DNA of 64,000 nucleotides from positions 960,001 through 1,024,000 of the forward strand of contig OY969695.1 of assembly GCA_963701965.1 (NCBI GenBank), in the 5' to 3' direction. This DNA is from an uncultured Gemmatimonadales bacterium (GTDB lineage: Bacteria > Gemmatimonadota > Gemmatimonadetes > Gemmatimonadales > Gemmatimonadaceae). The notes beneath the pieces are model-generated. The model had not been told where the DNA came from. It saw nothing but the letters and a program-made list of their open reading frames with translations, and did not search any database. Each line of letters starts with the position of its first letter. Within the stretch, counting starts at the first letter, position 1. Positions 32,337 to 50,041 of this stretch are shown here, piece by piece. A program made the translations under genes and the position numbers.

Positions 32337-33779
32337 ACGGAGGCGCTTGGCGAATCGCCCGCCCCACCGCGCGATCTCGCCCGGGCGGCTCAAGCCAAGT
32401 CGCGAGGACACGACGTCGAGTCCATCGCCGACGACGCTGGTCATGCTTTCGACCCAGTCCGCGGCGTTCGTGGTGTGGCTCCGGCCGAGCGCGGCGAGGA
32501 CCACCGGCTGCAGGCGGAGCACCACGGGTGTGGCCACGGCCAGCGCGTTGAACCGCGGATCGTACCGGGTGCCAATGCCTTCGATCAACGACGCCGTACG
32601 CGCGAAGTACACCATGGAGCTGGGCAGCGTGATCGGCGAGTCGTACAGGTTGATCATCACCTGGTCGGCGAGGAGCTCCATGCGCTCCAGCGTCGTGGTG
32701 TAGCGGGACGCGAGGCCGAGCAACAGCGCGACGAGGGGCCGCAGGTCGTCGCGCGGCACATCCGGGGCGACGAGTCCCAGCGCGTCGAAGCCGGCGATGA
32801 CCGCATCCACGTCCTTCCGGATCGCGGCCAGGATCGTTCCCAGGAGCGCCCGGCGCATGGCACGCGACACGCGGACGACCATGCCGAAATCCAAGAGCAC
32901 GAGCGCGCCGTCCGGGGCGACCCGGAGATTCTTGGGATGTGGGTCGGCGTGGAACAGCCCGTCGACCATCATCATCGACACGTAGGCTTCGATGAGACGG
33001 CGCACGAGGAGGGTGAGGTCGATCTCGCCGGCGGCGACGCGGGCATTGAGCGCGTCGAGCGCGTCGCCTTCCATGAACTCGAGCACGAGCACGCGTTGGC
33101 GCACGAACGGCAGAACGACCGCGGGCACGCGGATCCCCGGCGTGTCGGCGAAGTTCTCGCCCATCTCGACCGCGTTGGCCGCCTCCAGGCGATAGTCGAT
33201 CTCGTCCCGCACCCGAAAGGCGAATTCGTCGAGCACAACGCGGAGCTGTCGCAGGTTGCGGATCACACGGGGGCTGCCGCGGAAGAGGCGCAAGCAAAGG
33301 TCGAGCAGCCGGCCCGTCGCCGCGCAGTCGGCCGCGATCAGGCGCTCGACGCCGGGGCGGAGCACTTTGACAGCGACTTTCTGGCCCGCCACGCGTGCCT
33401 CGTAGACCTGCCCGAGCGAGGCGGACGCGACCGGTTCGTGGGAGATCCACTCGAAGACCGCGTCGGCCGGCCGGCCATAGGCGCGCGCGATCTCGCGCGC
33501 GATCGGTGGCCACGGCGTCGCTGGCACACGATCCATGAGCGACGCGAGGGCGCCGAGGTAGGGCTCGGGGATCACGTCCGAACGCGCGCCCAGGAGCTGC
33601 GCCAGCTTGATGAACGAGGGCCCGAGGCCCGCCAGTGTCCGCGCGATCCGCTCGGCGCGCTTGGCATGGAATGCCGCGGTGCGCGGGAGCGGCGCGCCGA
33701 ACCAGACCCAGCGCGCGACATCGCGACGGAACGACACGATGACGGGCACGACCCGCCAGGCAATGATCACGAGGCGCAT
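32286..33779 (-). CDS. AarF/ABC1/UbiB-family atypical kinase
   Basis: LGPSFIKLAQ, SASLGQVY, VAVKV, FHADPHPKN, LDFGM. Confidence 0.92.
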   Translation of the reverse strand: MRLVIIAWRVVPVIVSFRRDVARWVWFGAPLPRTAAFHAKRAERIARTLAGLGPSFIKLAQLLGARSDVIPEPYLGALASLMDRVPATPWPPIAREIARAYGRPADAVFEWISHEPVASASLGQVYEARVAGQKVAVKVLRPGVERLIAADCAATGRLLDLCLRLFRGSPRVIRNLRQLRVVLDEFAFRVRDEIDYRLEAANAVEMGENFADTPGIRVPAVVLPFVRQRVLVLEFMEGDALDALNARVAAGEIDLTLLVRRLIEAYVSMMMVDGLFHADPHPKNLRVAPDGALVLLDFGMVVRVSRAMRRALLGTILAAIRKDVDAVIAGFDALGLVAPDVPRDDLRPLVALLLGLASRYTTTLERMELLADQVMINLYDSPITLPSSMVYFARTASLIEGIGTRYDPRFNALAVATPVVLRLQPVVLAALGRSHTTNAADWVESMTSVVGDGLDVVSSRLGLSRPGEIARWGGRFAKRLRLLFDGNGTNGKRIERP

Positions 33780-33818
33780 GTGTGTTAAGCTAGCCGGTGG
33801 GCCCTATCTTTCGCGGCC

Positions 33819-34676
33819 ATGGCCCAGGCGCCCGGCATTCTCTTTTCGTTCGCGCATCCGGATGACGAGAGCTTTCTCGTGGCCGGGACGGGGTGCGCCT
33901 ACGGAGCCCGCGGCGTCCGGCTCGCCCTGTTCACCGCGACCCGCGGCGGCGCGGGGAAGGTCGGGGATCCGCCGGTGTGCGCGCGCGAGGAGATCACGGG
34001 CGTCCGGGCGCGGGAGTTGAGCGCGGCCACCGCCATCCTGGGCATCGACGACGTCACCCTGCTCGACTATCCGGATGGGGCGCTGGGGGATGTGCCCGCG
34101 GATGACATCCGGCGGCATCTCGTGCGGCTCATCCGGCGCCATCGGCCCGCGGTGGTCGTCACGTTCGACCCGAACGGCGCGAACGGACATCGCGATCACG
34201 TGGCCATCAGCCGGTTCACGTCGGACGCGATCGCCGCGGCCAGTGATCCGCGGTGGTACGAGGACGAAGGCGCGCCGCACGAGGTGCGGCGATTGGTGTG
34301 GACGCCGCCGGCGCCGTGGTGGTCGGACCGCGACCAAACGCTGGGCGTCGACTTTCGCATCGACGTCCATGCCTACTGGGAGCGGAAGGCCGCGGCGCTG
34401 CGGGCGCATTGGACGCAGCATCAGTCGATCAATCGGATTTTCTTTGCGAATGAGCACGCCGCGGAGATCTCGGCGCAGCCGAGATCTGTCCAACCGACCG
34501 GGGATCTCGCGACGCGGAGCGGCGCGGAGATCTCGGCGCAGCCGAGATCTGTCCAACCGACCGGGGATCTCGCGACGCAGCGCGTCGCGGACATCTTGTC
34601 AGTGGAGGCGTTCCGCCAGGCATGGGGGCCGCGACTGCCCGAGCGACCGACCGCCGACCTGCTCGTTGGCTTGTGA
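33819..34676 (+). CDS. PIG-L/LmbE-family deacetylase carrying an in-frame repeat insertion
   Basis: AHPDDE, GHRDH, KAAALRAHWTQ. Confidence 0.88.
   Translation: MAQAPGILFSFAHPDDESFLVAGTGCAYGARGVRLALFTATRGGAGKVGDPPVCAREEITGVRARELSAATAILGIDDVTLLDYPDGALGDVPADDIRRHLVRLIRRHRPAVVVTFDPNGANGHRDHVAISRFTSDAIAAASDPRWYEDEGAPHEVRRLVWTPPAPWWSDRDQTLGVDFRIDVHAYWERKAAALRAHWTQHQSINRIFFANEHAAEISAQPRSVQPTGDLATRSGAEISAQPRSVQPTGDLATQRVADILSVEAFRQAWGPRLPERPTADLLVGL
34461..34600 (+). repeat. Two tandem 63-bp double-hairpin units, in frame
   Basis: Period 63; AGATCTCGGC-GCA-GCCGAGATCT stem, TGTCCAACCGAC linker, second imperfect stem. Confidence 0.95.
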
Positions 34677-35941
34677 CCACCCGCCGGGCGTTCGTTTCGA
34701 CCGTGGCGTGGGCCGCGACCGCGCCGCGCGCGCTGGCGCACGCGGCGGCGTATGCGGCCTCCGCGTCTCCCGCGTTGCTCGTCGATGACGAGGCGTACTG
34801 GTCGAGCGTGCGGCAGGCGTTCGCGCTCGATCGCACGCTGACGTATCTCAACAGCGCCGGCATCAGTCCGGCGTCAACCGCGGTGCTCGAGGGGATGGTG
34901 CGCGCGCTGCGGTTCGCGAACAGCGCGCCCGTCGAGCATATGTGGCGCGGAGAAGAACCGGAGATCGAAGGCGTGCGCCGGGCGCTGGCGGCGGAGTTCG
35001 GGTGTGATCCCGAAGAGATGGCGATCACGCGGAACGCGTCCGAGGCACTGGAGACGCTCATCTTCGGCCTGCCGCTCGGCGCCGGGGACGAGGTCATCGT
35101 GACCGCGCACAACTATGACCGCATGCTCACGGCGTGGGCACAGCGCGCGCGGCGGGATGGCATCGTGGTGCGCACCGTGACGTTCCCGCTGCCCGTGACA
35201 TCGGACGCGGTGGTGATCGAGGCCATCCGCGAGGCGATCACCGATCGCACGCGCGTGATCGAGATTCCGCACCTCACGAATTGGACGGGCCAGCCGTTAC
35301 CGGTCCCGGCGATCGTGGCGTCGGGTCGCGCCCGGGGCGTGAGCGTCATCGTGGATGGGGCGCAAACGTTCGCCCACACGCCGGTGTCGCGCGATGCACT
35401 CGGCTGCGATTACTACGCGACCAGTCTGCACAAGTGGTTGCTCGCCCCGGTAGGGTCGGGCTTCTTGTATGTCCGGCGCGAGCGCATCCCTGCCGTGTGG
35501 CCGCTCTTCGCTGCCCCGGAGGCGCGGAGCGCCGACGTGCGCAAGTTCGAGGAGATCGGCACGCATCCCGCGGCCAACCACAACGCGATCACCGCGGCGC
35601 TGGCGTTTCACCACAGCATCGGCGGGCCCCGGAAGCTGGCGAGGCTCAAATGGCTCCGGGATCGATGGGCGCGCGCGATCGGCGCCGAGAGCCCGCGGGT
35701 GCACATCCGCACGCCGCTCGACGATCCGCGGAGCGGAGCCATCGCGCTCGTGGAGATCGAGGGACTGGAAGCCGGCGCGCTGGCGCGGTGGCTCTGGGTT
35801 ACGCATCGCATCGTGACGAGCGCCATCGCGTTTGGGGGCGTGACCGGAGTCCGCGTCACGCCGAACGTGTTCACCACGCCGTCGGAGATCGACCGGTTGA
35901 CGGACGCACTCCGGACGGCCATTCGAAAAGGCATCACGTGA
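34673..35941 (+). CDS. Class V PLP aminotransferase (isopenicillin-N epimerase-like) with Tat-like signal
   Basis: TRRAFV, YLNSAG, VDGAQ, SLHKW. Confidence 0.88.
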   Translation: MTTRRAFVSTVAWAATAPRALAHAAAYAASASPALLVDDEAYWSSVRQAFALDRTLTYLNSAGISPASTAVLEGMVRALRFANSAPVEHMWRGEEPEIEGVRRALAAEFGCDPEEMAITRNASEALETLIFGLPLGAGDEVIVTAHNYDRMLTAWAQRARRDGIVVRTVTFPLPVTSDAVVIEAIREAITDRTRVIEIPHLTNWTGQPLPVPAIVASGRARGVSVIVDGAQTFAHTPVSRDALGCDYYATSLHKWLLAPVGSGFLYVRRERIPAVWPLFAAPEARSADVRKFEEIGTHPAANHNAITAALAFHHSIGGPRKLARLKWLRDRWARAIGAESPRVHIRTPLDDPRSGAIALVEIEGLEAGALARWLWVTHRIVTSAIAFGGVTGVRVTPNVFTTPSEIDRLTDALRTAIRKGIT

Positions 35942-36777
35942 AGGCCCTCCGCCGCATCCCGCCATCGCTCTTGGTACTGACGTCAATGTCGACGACGCAG
36001 ATCGGGGGCGCGCTGGCCAAGACGGTGTTTCCGGTGCTCGGCACCCCGGGCACGGTCTTCATCCGCGTGGCGAGCGCGGCGCTCATGCTGCTGGTGGTCG
36101 CTCGGCCCCGTCTCGAGCACGGGTGGAAACGAAACGCCGGGATTGTGGGGCTGTTTGGCGCGATCCTCGGCACCATGAACCTGGTGTTCTACCTGGCGCT
36201 GGCGCGGATCCCGTTCGGGATCTGCGTGACGCTGGAGTTCACGGGTCCGCTCGCGGTGGCGGTCGCGGGCTCGCGCCGGCCGCGCGATCTCCTCTGGGTG
36301 GTGCTGGCTGCCGGGGGCATCGTGCTCTTGTCACCGCTCGAAACGCACGACCTGGATCCGATCGGCGTGATGCTGGCACTCGGGGCCGGCGTATGTTGGG
36401 CCTCGTACATCATCGTGGGCGCGCGACTCGGCAAGGCGTTCGATGGAGGACACGGGCTGGCGATGGCGATGGCGGTTGCCGCGCTCATCCTGCTGCCCAT
36501 CGGCGGAGGGACAGGCATCGGGCGCGGCATCCATGCCCCTCTGGCGCTCGTGACTGGATGCGCCGTGGGCCTGCTCTCGTCGGCCCTGCCCTACTCGCTG
36601 GAGGTCGAGGCGCTGCGGCGATTGCCGACGCGGGTGTTCGGCGTGTGGATGAGCCTCGAGCCGGCGCTGGCGGCGGTCGCGGGTTTTCTCATGCTAGGTG
36701 AACGACTGGGTTTTCACGCCATTATCGCTTTGATCATGGTCACCATCGCCAGCGCCGGAGCGGCGGCTTTCGGATGA
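35938..36777 (+). CDS. EamA/RhtA-like DMT transporter
   Basis: Multiple TMs; LEFTGPL, YSLEVEALRRLP, SLEPA. Confidence 0.9.
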   Translation: MKALRRIPPSLLVLTSMSTTQIGGALAKTVFPVLGTPGTVFIRVASAALMLLVVARPRLEHGWKRNAGIVGLFGAILGTMNLVFYLALARIPFGICVTLEFTGPLAVAVAGSRRPRDLLWVVLAAGGIVLLSPLETHDLDPIGVMLALGAGVCWASYIIVGARLGKAFDGGHGLAMAMAVAALILLPIGGGTGIGRGIHAPLALVTGCAVGLLSSALPYSLEVEALRRLPTRVFGVWMSLEPALAAVAGFLMLGERLGFHAIIALIMVTIASAGAAAFG

Positions 36778-37883
36778 CGGAACTTCTCTCGTGTCAACGC
36801 GACGCGTTCTCCCTACCGGAGGACTCGCACTATCTCAACTGCGCGTACATGTCCCCGTTGCCGCGCGCCGTCGAAGCCGCCGGGGTCGCGGGTATCGCGC
36901 GGAAACGCGACCCATCGCAGATTCGCCCGGCGGACTTCTTTACGGAGCCCGATCAGGCGCGGGCGCTGTTCGCGCGGCTCATCGGTGCCGCGCCGGCGCG
37001 CGTCGCGATCATCCCGGCGGTGTCCTACGGGGTCGCCGCGGCGGCCCGCAACGTGGAGATCCGCCCGGGCGCGAACGTGGTGCTGCTCGATGAGCAGTTC
37101 CCGAGCAACGTGTTGAGCTGGCGGCGCACGCGCGCCGAGATTCGCACGGTCGGTCGCGGGCCCGATTGGAGCGCGCGGCTCCTCGACGCCATCGATCGCC
37201 ACACGGCGGTCGTGGCGGTCGACGCCGTCCACTGGACCGACGGCACGCGCTTCGACCTGGCGGCGATCGGCGCCCGCGCGCGCGAGGTGGGCGCCGTGTT
37301 CGTCGTCGACGCCACCCAGTCCATTGGAGCCGAGCCCATCAATGTCTGCGTGCTCCAGCCCGACGTCCTGGTGACCGCGACGTACAAGTGGCTGATGGGC
37401 TCCCTCGGCATCGGGTTCGCGTATTTCGGACCGCGATTCGACAACGGCGCGCCGGTCGAGGAGAATTGGCTGTCACGCGGCGGCAGCGACGACTTCCGCC
37501 GGCTCGCCGAGTACCGCGACGACTACCGGCCGGGCGCGGCGCGCTACGACGTCGGCGGGCGCGCCAACTTCATCCTGCCAGCCATGGCCGCCGCGGCGCT
37601 CGAACTGATCCTGACCTGGGACCCGGCCCGCATCGCCGCCTACTGCCGCGCGCTCAACGGCCCCCTGGTCGACGCGGCGCGGGCCCTCGGCTACACCGTA
37701 GGCGACGTCTCCCACATCGTCGGCCTGCGCCTGCCCGCGGGGCGCGACACCGCGTCGATCGAGCGGAAACTGGCCGACCACCGCGTCTTCGTGTCCCTCC
37801 GCGGCAGCGCCGTGCGCGTCTCGCCCAACGTGTACAACACGCCAGACGACATCGCGGCGCTGGTCGCGGCGCTGGCAATGTAA
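36774..37883 (+). CDS. Class V PLP aminotransferase
   Basis: YLNCAYMSP, VDATQSIG, YKWL, VRVSPNVYN. Confidence 0.9.
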   Translation: MTELLSCQRDAFSLPEDSHYLNCAYMSPLPRAVEAAGVAGIARKRDPSQIRPADFFTEPDQARALFARLIGAAPARVAIIPAVSYGVAAAARNVEIRPGANVVLLDEQFPSNVLSWRRTRAEIRTVGRGPDWSARLLDAIDRHTAVVAVDAVHWTDGTRFDLAAIGARAREVGAVFVVDATQSIGAEPINVCVLQPDVLVTATYKWLMGSLGIGFAYFGPRFDNGAPVEENWLSRGGSDDFRRLAEYRDDYRPGAARYDVGGRANFILPAMAAAALELILTWDPARIAAYCRALNGPLVDAARALGYTVGDVSHIVGLRLPAGRDTASIERKLADHRVFVSLRGSAVRVSPNVYNTPDDIAALVAALAM

Positions 37884-37913
37884 GGTTCCGGGGGGGTCGG
37901 TCGTTTGCTCTGT

Positions 37914-38423
37914 ATGAACGACCCCCTCGTGGTACCACGGGATCCGGACGCGCTGGCGGCGCTCTACGAGCGGTACGCGCCGGTCATGATGCGCGTGGCC
38001 TATCATATCACCGGCTCCCGGGCCGACGCCGAGGACGTGCTCCATGACGTCTTTCTGGGCCTGCCGCAGGCGCTCCAGCGGTACGAAGAGCGCGGCCGAC
38101 TCGAATCCTGGCTCGTGCGCCTCACGGCCCGGGCCGCGCTGTCGCGCGGCCGCCGCCGGCGGCGCCAAGCCGAGACACCCATCGAGAACAAGATCGTGTC
38201 CGCCGCTCCGGGAGACGTCGAGCGCCGGCTGGCCCGCGCGGACCTGCGCGCGGCACTTCATGCGCTGCCGGCGTCGCTGCGCGCGGTCGTCGTGTTGAAG
38301 GAGATCGAGGGGTACGCCCACGCCGAAATCGCCGAAATACTCGGGATCACCGCCGGCGCGTCCGAAGTTCGCCTCTGCCGCGCCATGCGACGGCTCCGCG
38401 CCACGCTCACGGAGGGCACATGA
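37914..38423 (+). CDS. ECF sigma factor
   Basis: DAEDVLHDVF, EGYAHAEIAEILG. Confidence 0.9.
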   Translation: MNDPLVVPRDPDALAALYERYAPVMMRVAYHITGSRADAEDVLHDVFLGLPQALQRYEERGRLESWLVRLTARAALSRGRRRRRQAETPIENKIVSAAPGDVERRLARADLRAALHALPASLRAVVVLKEIEGYAHAEIAEILGITAGASEVRLCRAMRRLRATLTEGT

Positions 38424-39520
38424 CACACCTCAGCGATAGCGCACTGCTCCAGTACGCGACTGGTGAATTGACCGGTGATCGCTCGGGCGTCGCCGAGCAT
38501 CTGGCCGGCTGTGGCGCGTGCCGCGGGATCGTGCTCGACACGCGGCGCATCGGGGCCGATCTCCGCGATCTGCCGGTGCCGCCGGCCCCATCGCTGGATG
38601 CGCTGCTGCGGATCCCCAGGGTGCGGCCGCGGACCGTGTGGCCCCAGGCCATTGCCGCGGTCCTGGTCATCGGCATCGCGGGGGCGCTCATCGCCAACAC
38701 GCCCGGCGCCATCGCGACCATGAGCCTATGGCCCGAGCCGCCACACGAGCCCGGGCCGCCGGTTACGGCGATACTGCCCAACCGCATCGCCGCGGGCCGG
38801 TGGACCTACATGTCGCGGATGTACACGGACAGCATCCTGTGGAGCACGCCCGTGATGTTCACGGTGACGGTCGATTCGGCCGCGGTTGGACCGACGCCGG
38901 CGTGGCGCGTCGTGGAGAGCGGCGCCCGGGGCTCCGATACCACCATTGTCGCCCGCGGCGACCTGCGACCAATGTCCGGCGTGCTCTCCGATCCGGGCAG
39001 CGGCCTCCGGGTCGTGACGACCTACTCGCGCGACAGCGTCATCACGATCGACTCGGCGCCGCGATACCGGTACGCCGACGGACATCGCGGGCTCAAAGTG
39101 CGACGGCACGCGTTCGCGATGGCCGACACGGTGCGCGTGCGCGCGGTCAACGAGGCCGGTCTCTGGGCCCTCATGCGGACCTTGCCCCTCGAGCGCTCGT
39201 GGCGCGGAACCATTGCCATGGTCGAGGACCCGGCATGGTCCCACGGCGCGGTGATTCGACAGCTGGCGGTGGAAGGCCGGCATACGATCGTCACGCCCAT
39301 CGGCCGCTGCGACTGCTGGCAGGTTTCCGTCTCGCACGGCGGCGTAACGGGGATCTCGGCGCAGCCGAGATCTGTCCAACCGACAATGGATCTCGCGACG
39401 CGAAGCGTCGCCGAGATCCTGTGGGTGCGCGCGTCCGATCGGATCGTGGTCAAGACCGAGTCCGTCGGCGAAGACGTGGGTGTCGTGGAGCTCGTCGCCG
39501 AGGACCCGCCGCCGACCTAG
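38420..39520 (+). CDS. Zinc-finger (ZAS) membrane anti-sigma factor
   Basis: HLAGCGAC motif, TM, beta-rich C-terminal domain; ATGA-coupled to the sigma gene. Confidence 0.8.
   Translation: MTHLSDSALLQYATGELTGDRSGVAEHLAGCGACRGIVLDTRRIGADLRDLPVPPAPSLDALLRIPRVRPRTVWPQAIAAVLVIGIAGALIANTPGAIATMSLWPEPPHEPGPPVTAILPNRIAAGRWTYMSRMYTDSILWSTPVMFTVTVDSAAVGPTPAWRVVESGARGSDTTIVARGDLRPMSGVLSDPGSGLRVVTTYSRDSVITIDSAPRYRYADGHRGLKVRRHAFAMADTVRVRAVNEAGLWALMRTLPLERSWRGTIAMVEDPAWSHGAVIRQLAVEGRHTIVTPIGRCDCWQVSVSHGGVTGISAQPRSVQPTMDLATRSVAEILWVRASDRIVVKTESVGEDVGVVELVAEDPPPT
39352..39419 (+). repeat. Single copy of the double-hairpin element, in frame
   Basis: GATCTCGGCGCAGCCGAGATCTGTCCAACCGAC identical to the 34.5-kb copies; second stem GGATCTCGCGACGC-GAA-GCGTCGCCGAGATCC. 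Confidence 0.95.
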
Positions 39521-39918
39521 TGGCGCGCGCTATCGTCCGGCGCGGAGGGACCGAACCGGTGCGAGCGCTCGTGGCTGCGCATGCGCGCGAACCGGTCGCG
39601 TTGTTCCGGCGTCAACACGCGCTCGATGTCGGTGCGCGTCGAGTCGAGGATCAGGCGGATGGCGGGGCGGATGCGCTGGGTGATCGAGTCGCGTTGGGCC
39701 AAGCGATGCTTCACGATCGAGTCGACCGCGGCGCGCTGGGCGGGCGACAACCCTAGCGCGTCGCCCAGGCGGCCCGGCGGGCCCATGGGATAGGAGCGGC
39801 CGAAGGGCGAGCGCGGGGCCAGCACCCGGCGGTCGAGCGCGATGCCGATGACGATACCGGAGACCAGCGAGAGCGCGACGACGAGACCGGCAATGACGCG
39901 CGCGGAGGCGCTCGACAC
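39517..39918 (-). CDS. Periplasmic Spy/CpxP/ZraP-like protein
   Basis: TM followed by LGLSPAQ...VLTPEQ motifs. Confidence 0.7.
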   Translation of the reverse strand: MSSASARVIAGLVVALSLVSGIVIGIALDRRVLAPRSPFGRSYPMGPPGRLGDALGLSPAQRAAVDSIVKHRLAQRDSITQRIRPAIRLILDSTRTDIERVLTPEQRDRFARMRSHERSHRFGPSAPDDSARH

Positions 39919-39924
39919 GCTGGC

Positions 39925-40341
39925 CTACTGGACGGTCGGTCCGAGCGCCGCGGCGAGCCACGCGTCGCGCCCGCCACCACCAACGACGGCGTCGTCATTC
40001 TCGCTCTCGGCGACGGTGCTGCGGACCCACGCCGCCACATCCGTGGAGTCGGCGGTCGCGCCGATCGTGCCGGACGGCGACACGACGGACGGCCCGACGG
40101 CAAAGAACGCTGCCGCGAGCGTCGCGACAATGCCCACGGGCACCATCGCGCGCCACCACATGAGGCCGTCGAGCAACCGACGGCTCTGCGTGGGCGCCAG
40201 GAGATATCCCGCGTCCGTCCCAATGCGGCGGCGCAACGACCACCAGTCGACCGTCTCGGCCGGCGGCGCACCAGCGACCGCACGGAGCGCCGCGACGACG
40301 CGGCCATCGAGCCCGCGCGAACGACGGATCGGTTTAGTCAT
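39925..40341 (-). CDS. Putative membrane anti-sigma factor
   Basis: Single TM, directly downstream of an ECF sigma gene. Confidence 0.6.
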   Translation of the reverse strand: MTKPIRRSRGLDGRVVAALRAVAGAPPAETVDWWSLRRRIGTDAGYLLAPTQSRRLLDGLMWWRAMVPVGIVATLAAAFFAVGPSVVSPSGTIGATADSTDVAAWVRSTVAESENDDAVVGGGGRDAWLAAALGPTVQ

Positions 40342-40945
40342 TGCGCAAAGCGCCGGCGAGCGGCGCGAGTGTCACGCGGAGCGCGTTGCGCGCCTCGTGG
40401 AGATACCACCGCACCGTGCCTTGCGAGAGATCGAGAATGCTCGCGATCTCGACGCTGGAAAATCCCTCCAGCTCCGAGAGCCGGAGAATGAGCCGCTGGC
40501 GCTCGGGCAGCAAATCGACCGCCGCCCGCACGCGCTCCTGGAGCTCCCGGCGCTCGGCGAGCCCGTCCGGCGAGCCTTCCCCGCCCGCCGCGTCGGCCGG
40601 CACCTGCTCTGTCTGCCGCACCGTCCGCGACTTCCGGGCGTTCAACCCGCGATTGACCAGAATGCGAAAGAACCACGGCGAAAACGCCCGCTCCCGGTCA
40701 AACCGGTCGATCTGCTCCAGCACCGTGATGAATGTCTCCTGCACGAGGTCCTCGGCGTCCTCGCGATGGTGCATGACGTGATACGCCACCGCGTACGCGC
40801 GGCGCAGGTAGCGCCGCACCAGCTCGTCGAACGCCGACGGATCCCGGTGACGCACGAGATCGAGGAGCGCCGGTTCGGTCAGCGCATCGAGGCCCGGAGC
40901 GCCGGACCGGACAGCAACAATGGCAGGCGACGATTTCGGCTTCAC
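40334..40945 (-). CDS. ECF sigma factor
   Basis: AFDELVRRY, DAEDLVQETF, LPERQR, EIASIL; start approximate. Confidence 0.88.
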   Translation of the reverse strand: MKPKSSPAIVAVRSGAPGLDALTEPALLDLVRHRDPSAFDELVRRYLRRAYAVAYHVMHHREDAEDLVQETFITVLEQIDRFDRERAFSPWFFRILVNRGLNARKSRTVRQTEQVPADAAGGEGSPDGLAERRELQERVRAAVDLLPERQRLILRLSELEGFSSVEIASILDLSQGTVRWYLHEARNALRVTLAPLAGALRND

Positions 40946-49965: not shown

Positions 49966-50041
49966 CGAGGAACGCGTGAGCGTTCCTCGTGTCCAACCGA
50001 CGGTTTCAGGGACGGCCGACAGGCCGTCCCTGAAACTTGTC
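49966..50041. repeat. Intergenic double hairpin sharing the TGTCCAACCGAC linker
   Basis: Perfect 10-bp stem 49966-49989, linker 49990-50001, perfect 15-bp stem 50003-50036, then TTGTC. Confidence 0.85.

Follow-up and report, generated by a model that had tools for sequence, protein, structure and literature searches.

Insertion loci in the window

Within the 64,000-nucleotide stretch of DNA that was analysed (the window), a plus-strand gene at 33819..34676 encodes a deacetylase of the PIG-L/LmbE family (PF02585) of 285 residues, 42 of which are contributed by two tandem 63-nt units. Unit 1 (34466..34528, plus strand) is formed by hairpin 1 (34466-34486), a linker (34487-34498), a 3-nt spacer and the arm of hairpin 2 with its inner stem-loop; unit 2 (34529..34591, plus strand) has a hairpin 2 that is not identical to that of unit 1. 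The target core CATC-T found directly after the units (34592..34596, plus strand) closes hairpin 2 imperfectly, and is read as host-derived from the protein alignment of PIG-L homologues. A second plus-strand open reading frame (38420..39520), for a putative anti-sigma protein of 366 residues, carries a single unit (39352..39414, plus strand; hairpin 1 at 39352-39372, linker at 39373-39384, spacer at 39385-39387, hairpin 2 from 39388), which adds 21 residues and is followed by the host core GATC-C (39415..39419, plus strand) completing hairpin 2. The label ‘ZAS anti-sigma’ of the initial annotation, which was made from the sequence alone, found no match in Pfam or NCBIfam; the anti-sigma part is kept as putative because of the N-terminal HxxxCxxC motif, which we take to be the ZAS signature, and of the ECF sigma factor gene (37914..38423, plus strand; PF04542, PF08281) lying upstream.

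As a repeat family (D1), the window copies are placed at 34462, 34525 and 39348, with spacings of 63 and 4823, and the units encode the peptides ISAQPRSVQPTGDLATRSGAE, ISAQPRSVQPTGDLATQRVAD and ISAQPRSVQPTMDLATRSVAE. The 63-nt double-hairpin units in two unrelated genes, in tandem in the PIG-L gene, had already been recognised in the initial annotation, and the exact units given above do lie in open frames; all three copies that it listed are present, while a diverged intergenic member of the family (49966..50036, plus strand; fold z −9.0), which has the linker in common and different hairpin sequences, had been missed. The 68-nt copy at 39352-39419 folds into two hairpins (z −7.6, with none of 200 shuffles equally good); a single 63-nt unit, cut out at 34461-34523, shows no significant fold by itself (z −1.2).

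Alignment with orthologues confirmed a clean insertion, the peptide being absent from those of both window genes: 118 of 119 PIG-L homologues have 20 residues where the window protein has 62, and the sole homologue found for the putative anti-sigma protein (38% identity) has 11 residues versus 32. In the AF2 model of the PIG-L protein (mean pLDDT 87; residues 220-237 mostly below 50) the insert appears as a loop of low confidence, beside a protein core that is predicted with confidence to be intact.

Anatomy and distribution of the family

Genome-wide, the copies expected from the window are indeed many: about 110 units were found at 67 hand-curated loci in the Gemmatimonadaceae genome G000, by a census that initially counted 95 units at 62 loci, then 65 loci (the number used in several of the tests below) and then 67. 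L063, L065, L066 and L068 (non-Gemmatimonadaceae or doubtful) and L073, none of which has the fold, were dropped during curation. Orthologous sites are empty in relatives. Each unit consists, in this order, of hairpin 1 with a GNA loop, a conserved GTYCAACCGAY linker and hairpin 2, which starts 0-3 nt from the linker at 58 of 65 loci. GNA triloops, described as extra-stable DNA loops (PMC13037366), predominate in hairpin 1. The fold is maintained by covariation (96% of cells paired, six pairs with two-sided change, 0/500 shuffles), and conservation sits in the central linker and in the fold rather than at the element ends. Evidence on strand polarity is mixed: both strands fold equally well, mismatches in hairpin 1 are five A-C versus one G-T, and the replication-strand bias is weak (39 versus 26 by local skew, which is patchy; 36 versus 29 by a dnaA-based split).

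The family is genus-restricted. All six genomes of the genus contain it, as do independent metagenome contigs, and some sites are common to several genomes; outside the genus, single pattern matches occur in 5 of 395 genomes of the taxonomic family versus 6 with control matches. No match to the element was obtained in viral contigs, plasmids or phages, no Rickettsia record was among the matches listed in a genome scan, and Rfam returned for 33500-40500 one sub-threshold, unrelated match only. That no described family could be recognised in the sequence is borne out by Rfam, plasmid/phage BLAST and literature searches, none of which gave a match. That copies are assembly artefacts or simple local duplications, as the frame change noted below for one array might suggest, is refuted at the family level by the independent assemblies just mentioned and by the compensatory changes that distinguish copies, and is most improbable overall.

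Insertion in coding frames and the junction

The 63-nt units of what we call the GATC subfamily were said to be stop-free in one frame; they are so in all six, and are found in frame at 18 of 25 loci. The same orientation and frame, as noted for the two window genes, do not extend to the genome, where four different frames are used. Each unit adds 21 amino acids, in about 18 unrelated proteins that include pyruvate kinase, Ada/AlkA, Ogt and an Lhr helicase. The insert-bearing pyk is the only pyruvate kinase gene found (single-copy among called proteins) and shows a net gain of 63 nt against 5/5 orthologues, two of which read 64 through a one-base anchor shift. The same net +63 nt was observed at G000:3400017 (4/4 orthologues), 2676703 (5/5), 3435906 (3/4) and in a DUF58 gene (1/5). 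A single-sequence model of the pyk product, computed with no alignment, has a pLDDT of 38. Clean inserts, numerous copies, empty sites and the PIG-L loop model together support the original view of a non-autonomous mobile palindrome that adds peptide loops to host proteins. One array, at G000:2274954, straddles a frame change.

At the junctions of the GATC subfamily, which looks the youngest, the 5′ core is GATC at 22 of 23 loci and the 3′ core at only 14 of 23, arm pairing being kept in 7 of the 9 variants; two of the 23 cores, including that of the PIG-L gene, are without full pairing to the arm. The base at −1 is a purine at 21/23 loci (genome 36%), and that after the core is C or T at 21/23 (37%). 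The match between arm and flank ends, in this subfamily, at the 5-6-nt core: the spacer of 3 nt shows no match to the flank of its own locus (19/69 matches versus 17.3, p 0.36), so that copying is not obligatory at insertion. Direct repeats of 4-7 nt lie beside most copies, with a constant 5′ core and a varying 3′ one, and may or may not be duplications, the orthologues compared being distant (70-80%). In G000, GATC occurs 46,130 times, 86% within called genes, and CTAG 1,914 times, 48% within called genes.

The hairpin 2 arm and the host flank

It is host DNA that completes hairpin 2; at 20 of 65 loci the pairing partner is the stop codon of a convergent gene. At 17 loci the arm copies the last codons of that gene at 82 of 110 positions (versus 43.3 ± 4.5 permuted). 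In a 15-locus subfamily, in which hairpin 1 is near-identical (17-22 of 22 positions to its consensus), the arm-flank match is 58/81 versus 26.8, and every arm is different, each fitting its own flank. A replicate in other genomes gave 29/40, from a small and non-independent set (6 rows from about 4 sites). As to background, 24 of 3203 gene ends scored against 17 for the control, and the 24 included two new elements.

By sequence comparison the copied end is supported as probably host-derived at five of six genes checked (GroEL, GlnA, glutamate dehydrogenase, MBOAT and PccB). In rpsA three orthologues lack the last codon (Ile), so that the element supplied the matched bases there; at the site of L048/L061 the orthologue in G000 continues beyond the stop. 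The target-copying arm is a new feature, in-frame insertion being already known from Rickettsia palindromic elements (RPEs) and intragenic REPs.

Search for a mobilising enzyme

The RAYT/IS200-type HUH transposase that had been anticipated as mobiliser was not found in six genus genomes (completeness 67-95%), where Y1 (PF01797) and Y2 (PF04986) transposases were both at 0/6; 11 of 35 other relatives carry PF04986. A six-frame scan of G000 for the HUH motif gave no match, and HUH/relaxase motif searches returned two chance-like matches in 100 and no candidate. No mobile gene was seen beside the elements, and a G000 homologue exists for 108 of the 118 neighbouring ORFs in relatives, the remaining 10 not looking like transposases by eye. 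The 12 integrase-family proteins scanned (5 of the 14 matches in G000) do not reach the TIGR02249 cut-off for integron integrases, the two best being XerC/XerD.

Other candidates were considered and rejected: IS110, present in 3/6 genomes, with G000 copies no closer than about 98 kb to an element; reverse transcriptase, found in 1/6 genomes; GIY-YIG proteins, two in G000 that are read as UvrC-like from sequence, one of them 1 kb from an array; and DUF559, with one weak match.

Proposed mechanism and alternative explanations

On balance, though with considerable reservation, we favour a family of genus-restricted hairpin repeats that inserts at many sites, including in frame, likely as folded single-stranded DNA mobilised by an enzyme supplied from elsewhere, with pairing between arm and core picking the target. 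The element would begin with a G-core of its own (GATC or GAGC) and be attached, through an R|G junction, immediately 5′ of the host core, so that the apparent direct repeat would not be a true target duplication. The target would be chosen by pairing of the arm with the 5-6-base host core, with G-T wobble allowed, and the arm may then be rewritten from the host flank, at or after insertion, by fold-back template switching. Rewriting in the opposite direction would harm the end of the host gene and be purged. The GATC subfamily would enter genes, each unit adding a 21-residue loop, because coding DNA is rich in GATC and no frame of the unit contains a stop, whereas the CTAG-type subfamily would land at TAG stop codons. 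Tandem arrays may grow via slippage or unequal exchange between two cores. A bolder version, which we regard as rather unlikely, is a new class of DNA-guided mini-element adding 21-residue loops, in which the arm is a guide rewritten at each landing for the next jump; as the six genus genomes yielded no known HUH transposase, it would be moved by an enzyme of the host or by a nuclease that has escaped recognition.

The most serious alternative, which is still somewhat unlikely, denies the arm any guiding role: a protein-recognised motif (RGATCY or YTAG) would set the site, and the arm-flank match would arise later via quasi-palindrome correction and selection for a gene-end hairpin. It would account for the youngest copies matching at the core only, and PMC5941160 supports, for bacteria, the perfecting of inverted repeats through template switching. 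At a glutamate dehydrogenase site shared among relatives, the arm of one of them (L082) mirrors a synonymous host change, as such correction would produce, but the arms at L059, L076 and L083 do not track later host changes. Short hairpins over the stop codon were also seen, by eye, in five GroEL orthologues that lack hairpin 1 or the linker, showing that they occur on their own. However, the 7 of 9 variant cores noted above are exactly those keeping arm pairing, and random correction predicts no fixed boundary such as that between linker and hairpin 2.

That the arm is instead made afresh from the host flank at every insertion, by snap-back synthesis during repair or replication, appears improbable; the copy would then record the target, and the guide would be self-reprogramming. 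Long matches, of 13/14 nt at G000:2250179 and of similar lengths at 3643343, 4814442 and 5094864, are hard to obtain by site choice and speak for such synthesis, as do the 15 different arms beside a near-identical hairpin 1 and the three-hairpin variants of relatives (L056; L045, L064), in which the host copy sits in the last hairpin. It is difficult to reconcile with the youngest-looking GATC subfamily, which does not copy past the core, and no enzyme for it was identified.

Highly improbable is a classical MITE, 59 nt in length and mobilised by a DDE transposase, which would end in short terminal inverted repeats and duplicate 4 nt of its target (GATC or CTAG). An inverted repeat of 10 nt, though an imperfect one, is indeed present at the ends of the GATC subfamily (median 8/10, perfect in 3/23), the empty sites of L062 and L047 resemble TAGAT and TAGC duplications, and the genome contains five multi-copy IS-like repeats; but the element ends are unlike any of those five, so that no resident IS with the same terminal inverted repeats was found, and the CTAG-type subfamily has no terminal repeat past the core. 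Moreover, of the 9/23 loci where the 3′ core is not GATC, 8 have GATC as the 5′ core and the ninth has a 5′ core unlike its 3′ one, mismatches that duplication would not give, and it is the linker and the fold that are conserved.

The preferred reading would explain the contrast between a subfamily that enters genes and one that sits on stop codons. What the family leaves behind can be read from the sequence: the linker is fixed, the junction is defined, and the arm pairs with the target and in many cases is a copy of it. This yields testable predictions on target choice and a defined substrate for an enzyme hunt, and new peptide loops are documented in core proteins. The mirror copy of host DNA that many loci carry beside the element likely reveals how elements with no enzyme of their own choose the places where they insert and adjust to them.

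Comparison with known elements

Compared by features, the closest parallels are the RPEs, described as palindromes that lie in intergenic DNA as well as in the coding frame of unrelated genes, where they use more than a single frame, and for which no dedicated transposase is known (PMC10969869, PMC3733652); the in-frame insertions found here are likewise absent from orthologues. RPEs are, however, given as about 150 nt long in these sources versus 63 nt here, where a conserved linker lies amid two or three small hairpins, host DNA closes the last of these, whose arm copies the flank, and the host is a free-living member of the Gemmatimonadaceae. The assumption that REP elements are normally extragenic holds as a rule, but intragenic REPs have been described (PMC3733652). 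The CGTC REPs of that report share with the present family stems of 8-9 bp, short loops, a short unpaired tail, intragenic copies and apparently no dedicated transposase, their mode of spread being there an open question. They differ in their loops of 4-5 nt (3 nt here), in forming head-to-head dimers instead of two different hairpins and in the phyla listed, from which the present one is absent (PMC3733652); the CGTC/TGTC tag lies at the hairpin foot in just 2/65 loci here.

GTAG REPs, REPINs and BIMEs with RAYT are similar as short hairpin repeats near gene ends, in tandem arrays, lineage-restricted and probably acting as single-strand substrates (PMC6006769, PMC3116915). Here, in contrast, a GTAG guide lies 5′ of the hairpin in just 4/65 loci, no RAYT was found in the six genus genomes, the unit is not an inverted doublet and about a third of loci lie in coding frames. 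With IS200/IS605 ends and their non-autonomous derivatives the family shares conservation of structure over sequence, and it would also share target choice by base pairing and lack of target duplication, but it has a continuous antiparallel arm in place of a guide of four nucleotides lying 5′ of the hairpin foot (PMC6006769). Moreover, the arm here turns site-specific, no TnpA was found and neither was a cognate Y1/Y2 HUH transposase with matching ends, as an IS200/IS605 or IS91 derivative would call for.

Integron attC sites combine an RYYYAAC-like box with a GNA-capped hairpin containing an unpaired base, are variable in sequence and often touch stop codons. All these traits are found here, the unpaired base being on one arm and the fold outlasting the sequence, but there are no partner GTTRRRY box (GTT occurs within 12 nt after hairpin 2 in 6/65), no cassette arrays and no integron integrase among the 12 proteins scanned. 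Finally, mini-hairpins are reported to mark single-strand initiation sites (PMC13037366), and on this basis a reading of the element as a primase signal was also considered.

Copies in the window and their host genes

Two tandem units (34466–34528 and 34529–34591) lie inside the gene of a PIG-L deacetylase (PF02585) and a single one (39352–39414) inside a gene for a 366-residue protein behind an ECF sigma factor gene, so that the repeat in two unrelated genes reported in the initial annotation was recovered, with the three copies placed at exact unit boundaries. A diverged third locus of the family (49966–50036), with a perfect 15-bp second hairpin, is intergenic. As for the label ‘ZAS anti-sigma’ given to the 366-residue protein, the gene position stood, whereas the family search returned no match; by this position and an HxxxCxxC motif, we take the protein to be an anti-sigma candidate.

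At the repeat, 118 of the 119 aligned PIG-L homologues have 20 residues (the remaining one, 21) against 62 in the window protein, and the sole homologue found for the 366-residue protein has 11 against 32. Judged from these alignments, the repeats are additions to both host proteins, and the expected clean insertion relative to homologues was found. An AF2 model of the PIG-L protein (80-sequence alignment) predicts the core with confidence (mean pLDDT, 87) and the insert as a low-confidence loop on it.

Anatomy and fold

Hairpin 1 is usually of 9 bp with a cGNAg loop (CGCAG, CGAAG or CGGAG in 41/65 loci), and is followed by a linker (GTYCAACCGAY in 46/65 loci, with a possible 3-bp mini-stem around CAACC in 49/65) and by hairpin 2, which begins 0–3 nt past the linker in 58/65 loci, varies greatly in sequence and in many cases leaves one base on the 3′ side unpaired. 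The single copy at 39352 folds, together with the following host bases, into two hairpins (z, −7.6). Across 17 aligned copies of the GATC subfamily (young 63-nt units with a GATC core), 96% of the cells are paired and 6 pairs show two-sided change, values that relatedness inflates. The two strands fold equally in the folding model, and the wobble evidence is mixed (hairpin 2, 11 G-T cells; hairpin 1, 5 A-C versus 1 G-T). Because GCGNAGC loops are extra-stable as DNA (excerpts of PMC13037366), loop stability suggests a single-stranded DNA substrate.

Census and distribution

The genome that holds the window (G000) is assembled as one contig (5.12 Mb, 67% GC); its genes were called by a purpose-made dicodon model, so that gene edges are approximate. 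Linker-anchored scans yielded 89 and 96 candidates. Hand curation removed those without both hairpins (e.g. 971711, 1390967, 1546179, 1559689, 2911159, 3267882, 4530001 and 5084815) and included, in addition, imperfect members of arrays and two further loci, leading to a first census of 95 units at 62 loci and, after addition of three and then two loci, to a final one of 67 loci with about 110 units (array counts), in agreement with the prediction of further genomic copies.

The element pattern is present in 6/6 genus genomes. Beyond the genus it is at control level (5/395 genomes versus 6 for the control pattern), and the credible ones among the 23 stretches listed by a species-genome scan are labelled Gemmatimonadaceae or Gemmatimonadales. 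A metagenome scan gave 18 stretches and a scan of viral sequences none.

The insertion junction

The junction was tabulated for 23 of the 25 GATC loci, 2402395 and 2679454 being left out for their partial-unit ends. The 5′ core is GATC in 22/23 loci and the 3′ core in 14/23; 7 of the 9 variant 3′ cores are still paired with the arm of hairpin 2, either by G-T wobble or because the arm has changed to match. A purine precedes the element in 21/23 loci (36% expected), and C/T follows the 3′ core in 21/23 (37% expected). From these sequences, the insertion site is read as R|GATCY, with the 5′ core coming from the element and the 3′ core from the host. In the second, CTAG-type subfamily, TA precedes the element in 12/16 loci; empty sites for two individual stretches, L062 and L047, agree with the same junction.

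Copies inside genes

GATC-type copies are in frame at 18/25 loci (12 in the ISAQ/IPAQ frame, 4 in the DPGA frame and 2 antisense), with one further locus spanning a frame change and one uncertain, as opposed to only 2/42 loci outside the subfamily. This split is accounted for by GATC being 24 times as common as CTAG in G000, and mostly coding. The 63-nt unit is free of stop codons in all six frames; the period is 63 or 69 in 4/4 clear in-gene arrays, and 7/9 intergenic arrays include a non-triplet period.

In-frame hosts include pyruvate kinase (the sole pyk among the called G000 proteins), Ada/AlkA, Ogt, Lhr and SNF2 helicases, a VirD4-like protein, a glutamine amidotransferase and DUF58. Exactly 63 nt are missing in the orthologues of pyk (5/5), 3400017 (4/4), 2676703 (5/5) and 3435906 (3/4). 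The length difference is +90 in 4/5 orthologues at 2667463, and +119 in a poor DNA alignment with the sole PIG-L orthologue; DUF58 is +63 against 1/5 orthologues only, the others having different N-terminal stretches. In relatives, the DUF58 gene start carries hairpin repeats of other kinds, with GNA loops and no linker (G001:C10:71150-71700, L204; G003:C21:9300-9900, L206; G005:C154:2600-3150, L205), and is one spot struck by different repeats.

The VirD4/TraG-like coupling protein gene (PF02534; G000:C1:2401512-2403119) has two in-frame units, and no other conjugation gene was recognised nearby. A three-hairpin subfamily of about 80–90 nt (stretches L050, L051, L052, L054, L056, L058 and L077, and G000:C1:340740) is dominant in relatives, and is also in frame in genes that include, as read from sequence, those for an alcohol dehydrogenase and a cardiolipin-synthase-like protein.

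Matching of the arm to the host flank

At 25/65 loci the end of a convergent gene lies no more than 60 nt from the linker, and at 20 of these the stop codon of that gene is arm-paired (19 TAG, 1 TGA; genome-wide, 934/3249 stops are TAG). Where the stop pairs without a gap (17 rows), the pre-stop codons are matched by the arm at 82/110 positions, versus 43.3 ± 4.5 on permutation (0/20,000 as high), and in one subfamily (15 loci) the match past the 4-nt core is 58/81 versus 26.8. Element-free orthologues of GroEL, GlnA, MBOAT and PccB retain the same protein end, and the glutamate dehydrogenase domain extends to residue 432 of 435; in rpsA it is the element that supplies the last codon. Such a mirror copy is present at 24/3203 gene ends not next to a known element (control, 17), two of which proved to be previously unseen family members. 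In other genomes the arm pairs with 8/11 convergent stops, at about 5 independent sites.

Three observations count against a universal copying rule: the 3-nt spacer of the GATC subfamily does not match its own flank, hairpins that lack the linker cover the stop in GroEL orthologues, and some arms are unchanged despite later host changes.

At G000:C1:346120-346191 the pairing partner of hairpin 2 is the end (3′) of a tRNA-Arg gene. In an array of four units, the last one pairs with the stop codon for a 72-residue protein without Pfam match (G000:C1:4078291-4078509). Five stretches (L059, L069, L071, L083 and L085) share an element directly past a gene read as infB, at a site that is empty in G000; hairpin 2 of this element spans the GTG start codon of the gene that follows, a putative rbfA by its sequence, whose translation the element could affect.

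Proposed mechanism and relation to known systems

The element is most likely a folded-DNA unit that is non-autonomous. Protein would bind to hairpin 1 and the linker, the arm of hairpin 2 would select a 5–6-nt target through pairing, and template switching would afterwards rewrite the arm from the host flank. Copying is required at some stage because flank matches reach 13 nt and more, and is dispensable for insertion because the youngest copies show no such copying. For bacteria, PMC5941160 supports the correction of inverted repeats by template switching.

Each mobiliser family searched in the genus genomes and G000 (Y1/Y2 HUH, IS110, reverse transcriptase, integrases, GIY-YIG, DUF559, HUH/relaxase motifs) was absent or unlinked to the element; the suggested RAYT/IS200-type HUH transposase flanked by the repeats was not found in the genus genomes. 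The mobiliser may be an enzyme of the host, a divergent one, or one that these genomes have lost.

Tests for the GTAG tag, RAYT, integron attC and, family-wide, MITE were negative, as was that for the CGTC tag, a comparison made without published REP consensus sequences, which could matter (PMC3733652, in part). The element behaves like Rickettsia RPEs (PMC10969869) and intragenic REPs (PMC3733652), its pairing resembles guide–target pairing in IS200/IS605 (PMC6006769) and its tandem clusters those of REPINs (PMC3116915). In-frame insertion behaviour is already known and recurrent. In a literature search covering few subscription papers, neither this family nor a target-copying arm was found described, and within it the earlier impression that the family is undescribed holds. 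The element is real and a new family. The surprising part is a hairpin that is completed by, and copies, host DNA, which renders the transposition mechanism testable.

Other observations in the genome

Long inverted repeats, nested in one another over about 700 nt (G000:C1:2612434-2613130), are unrelated to the family. Two genes of IS110 type are clustered with two for reverse transcriptase at G000:C1:238000-254100, unlinked to the element. Two same-orientation elements flank 1.4 kb at G000:C1:4779293-4780762 (L110), where four relatives have only 7–262 nt between the neighbouring genes, which may reflect either a composite insertion or loss of DNA from the relatives. Finally, the adjacent gene pair at G000:C1:3306151-3310427 has similar ends (FPAH*, KFPH*), each trailed by a diverged element, which suggests a duplication postdating insertion.
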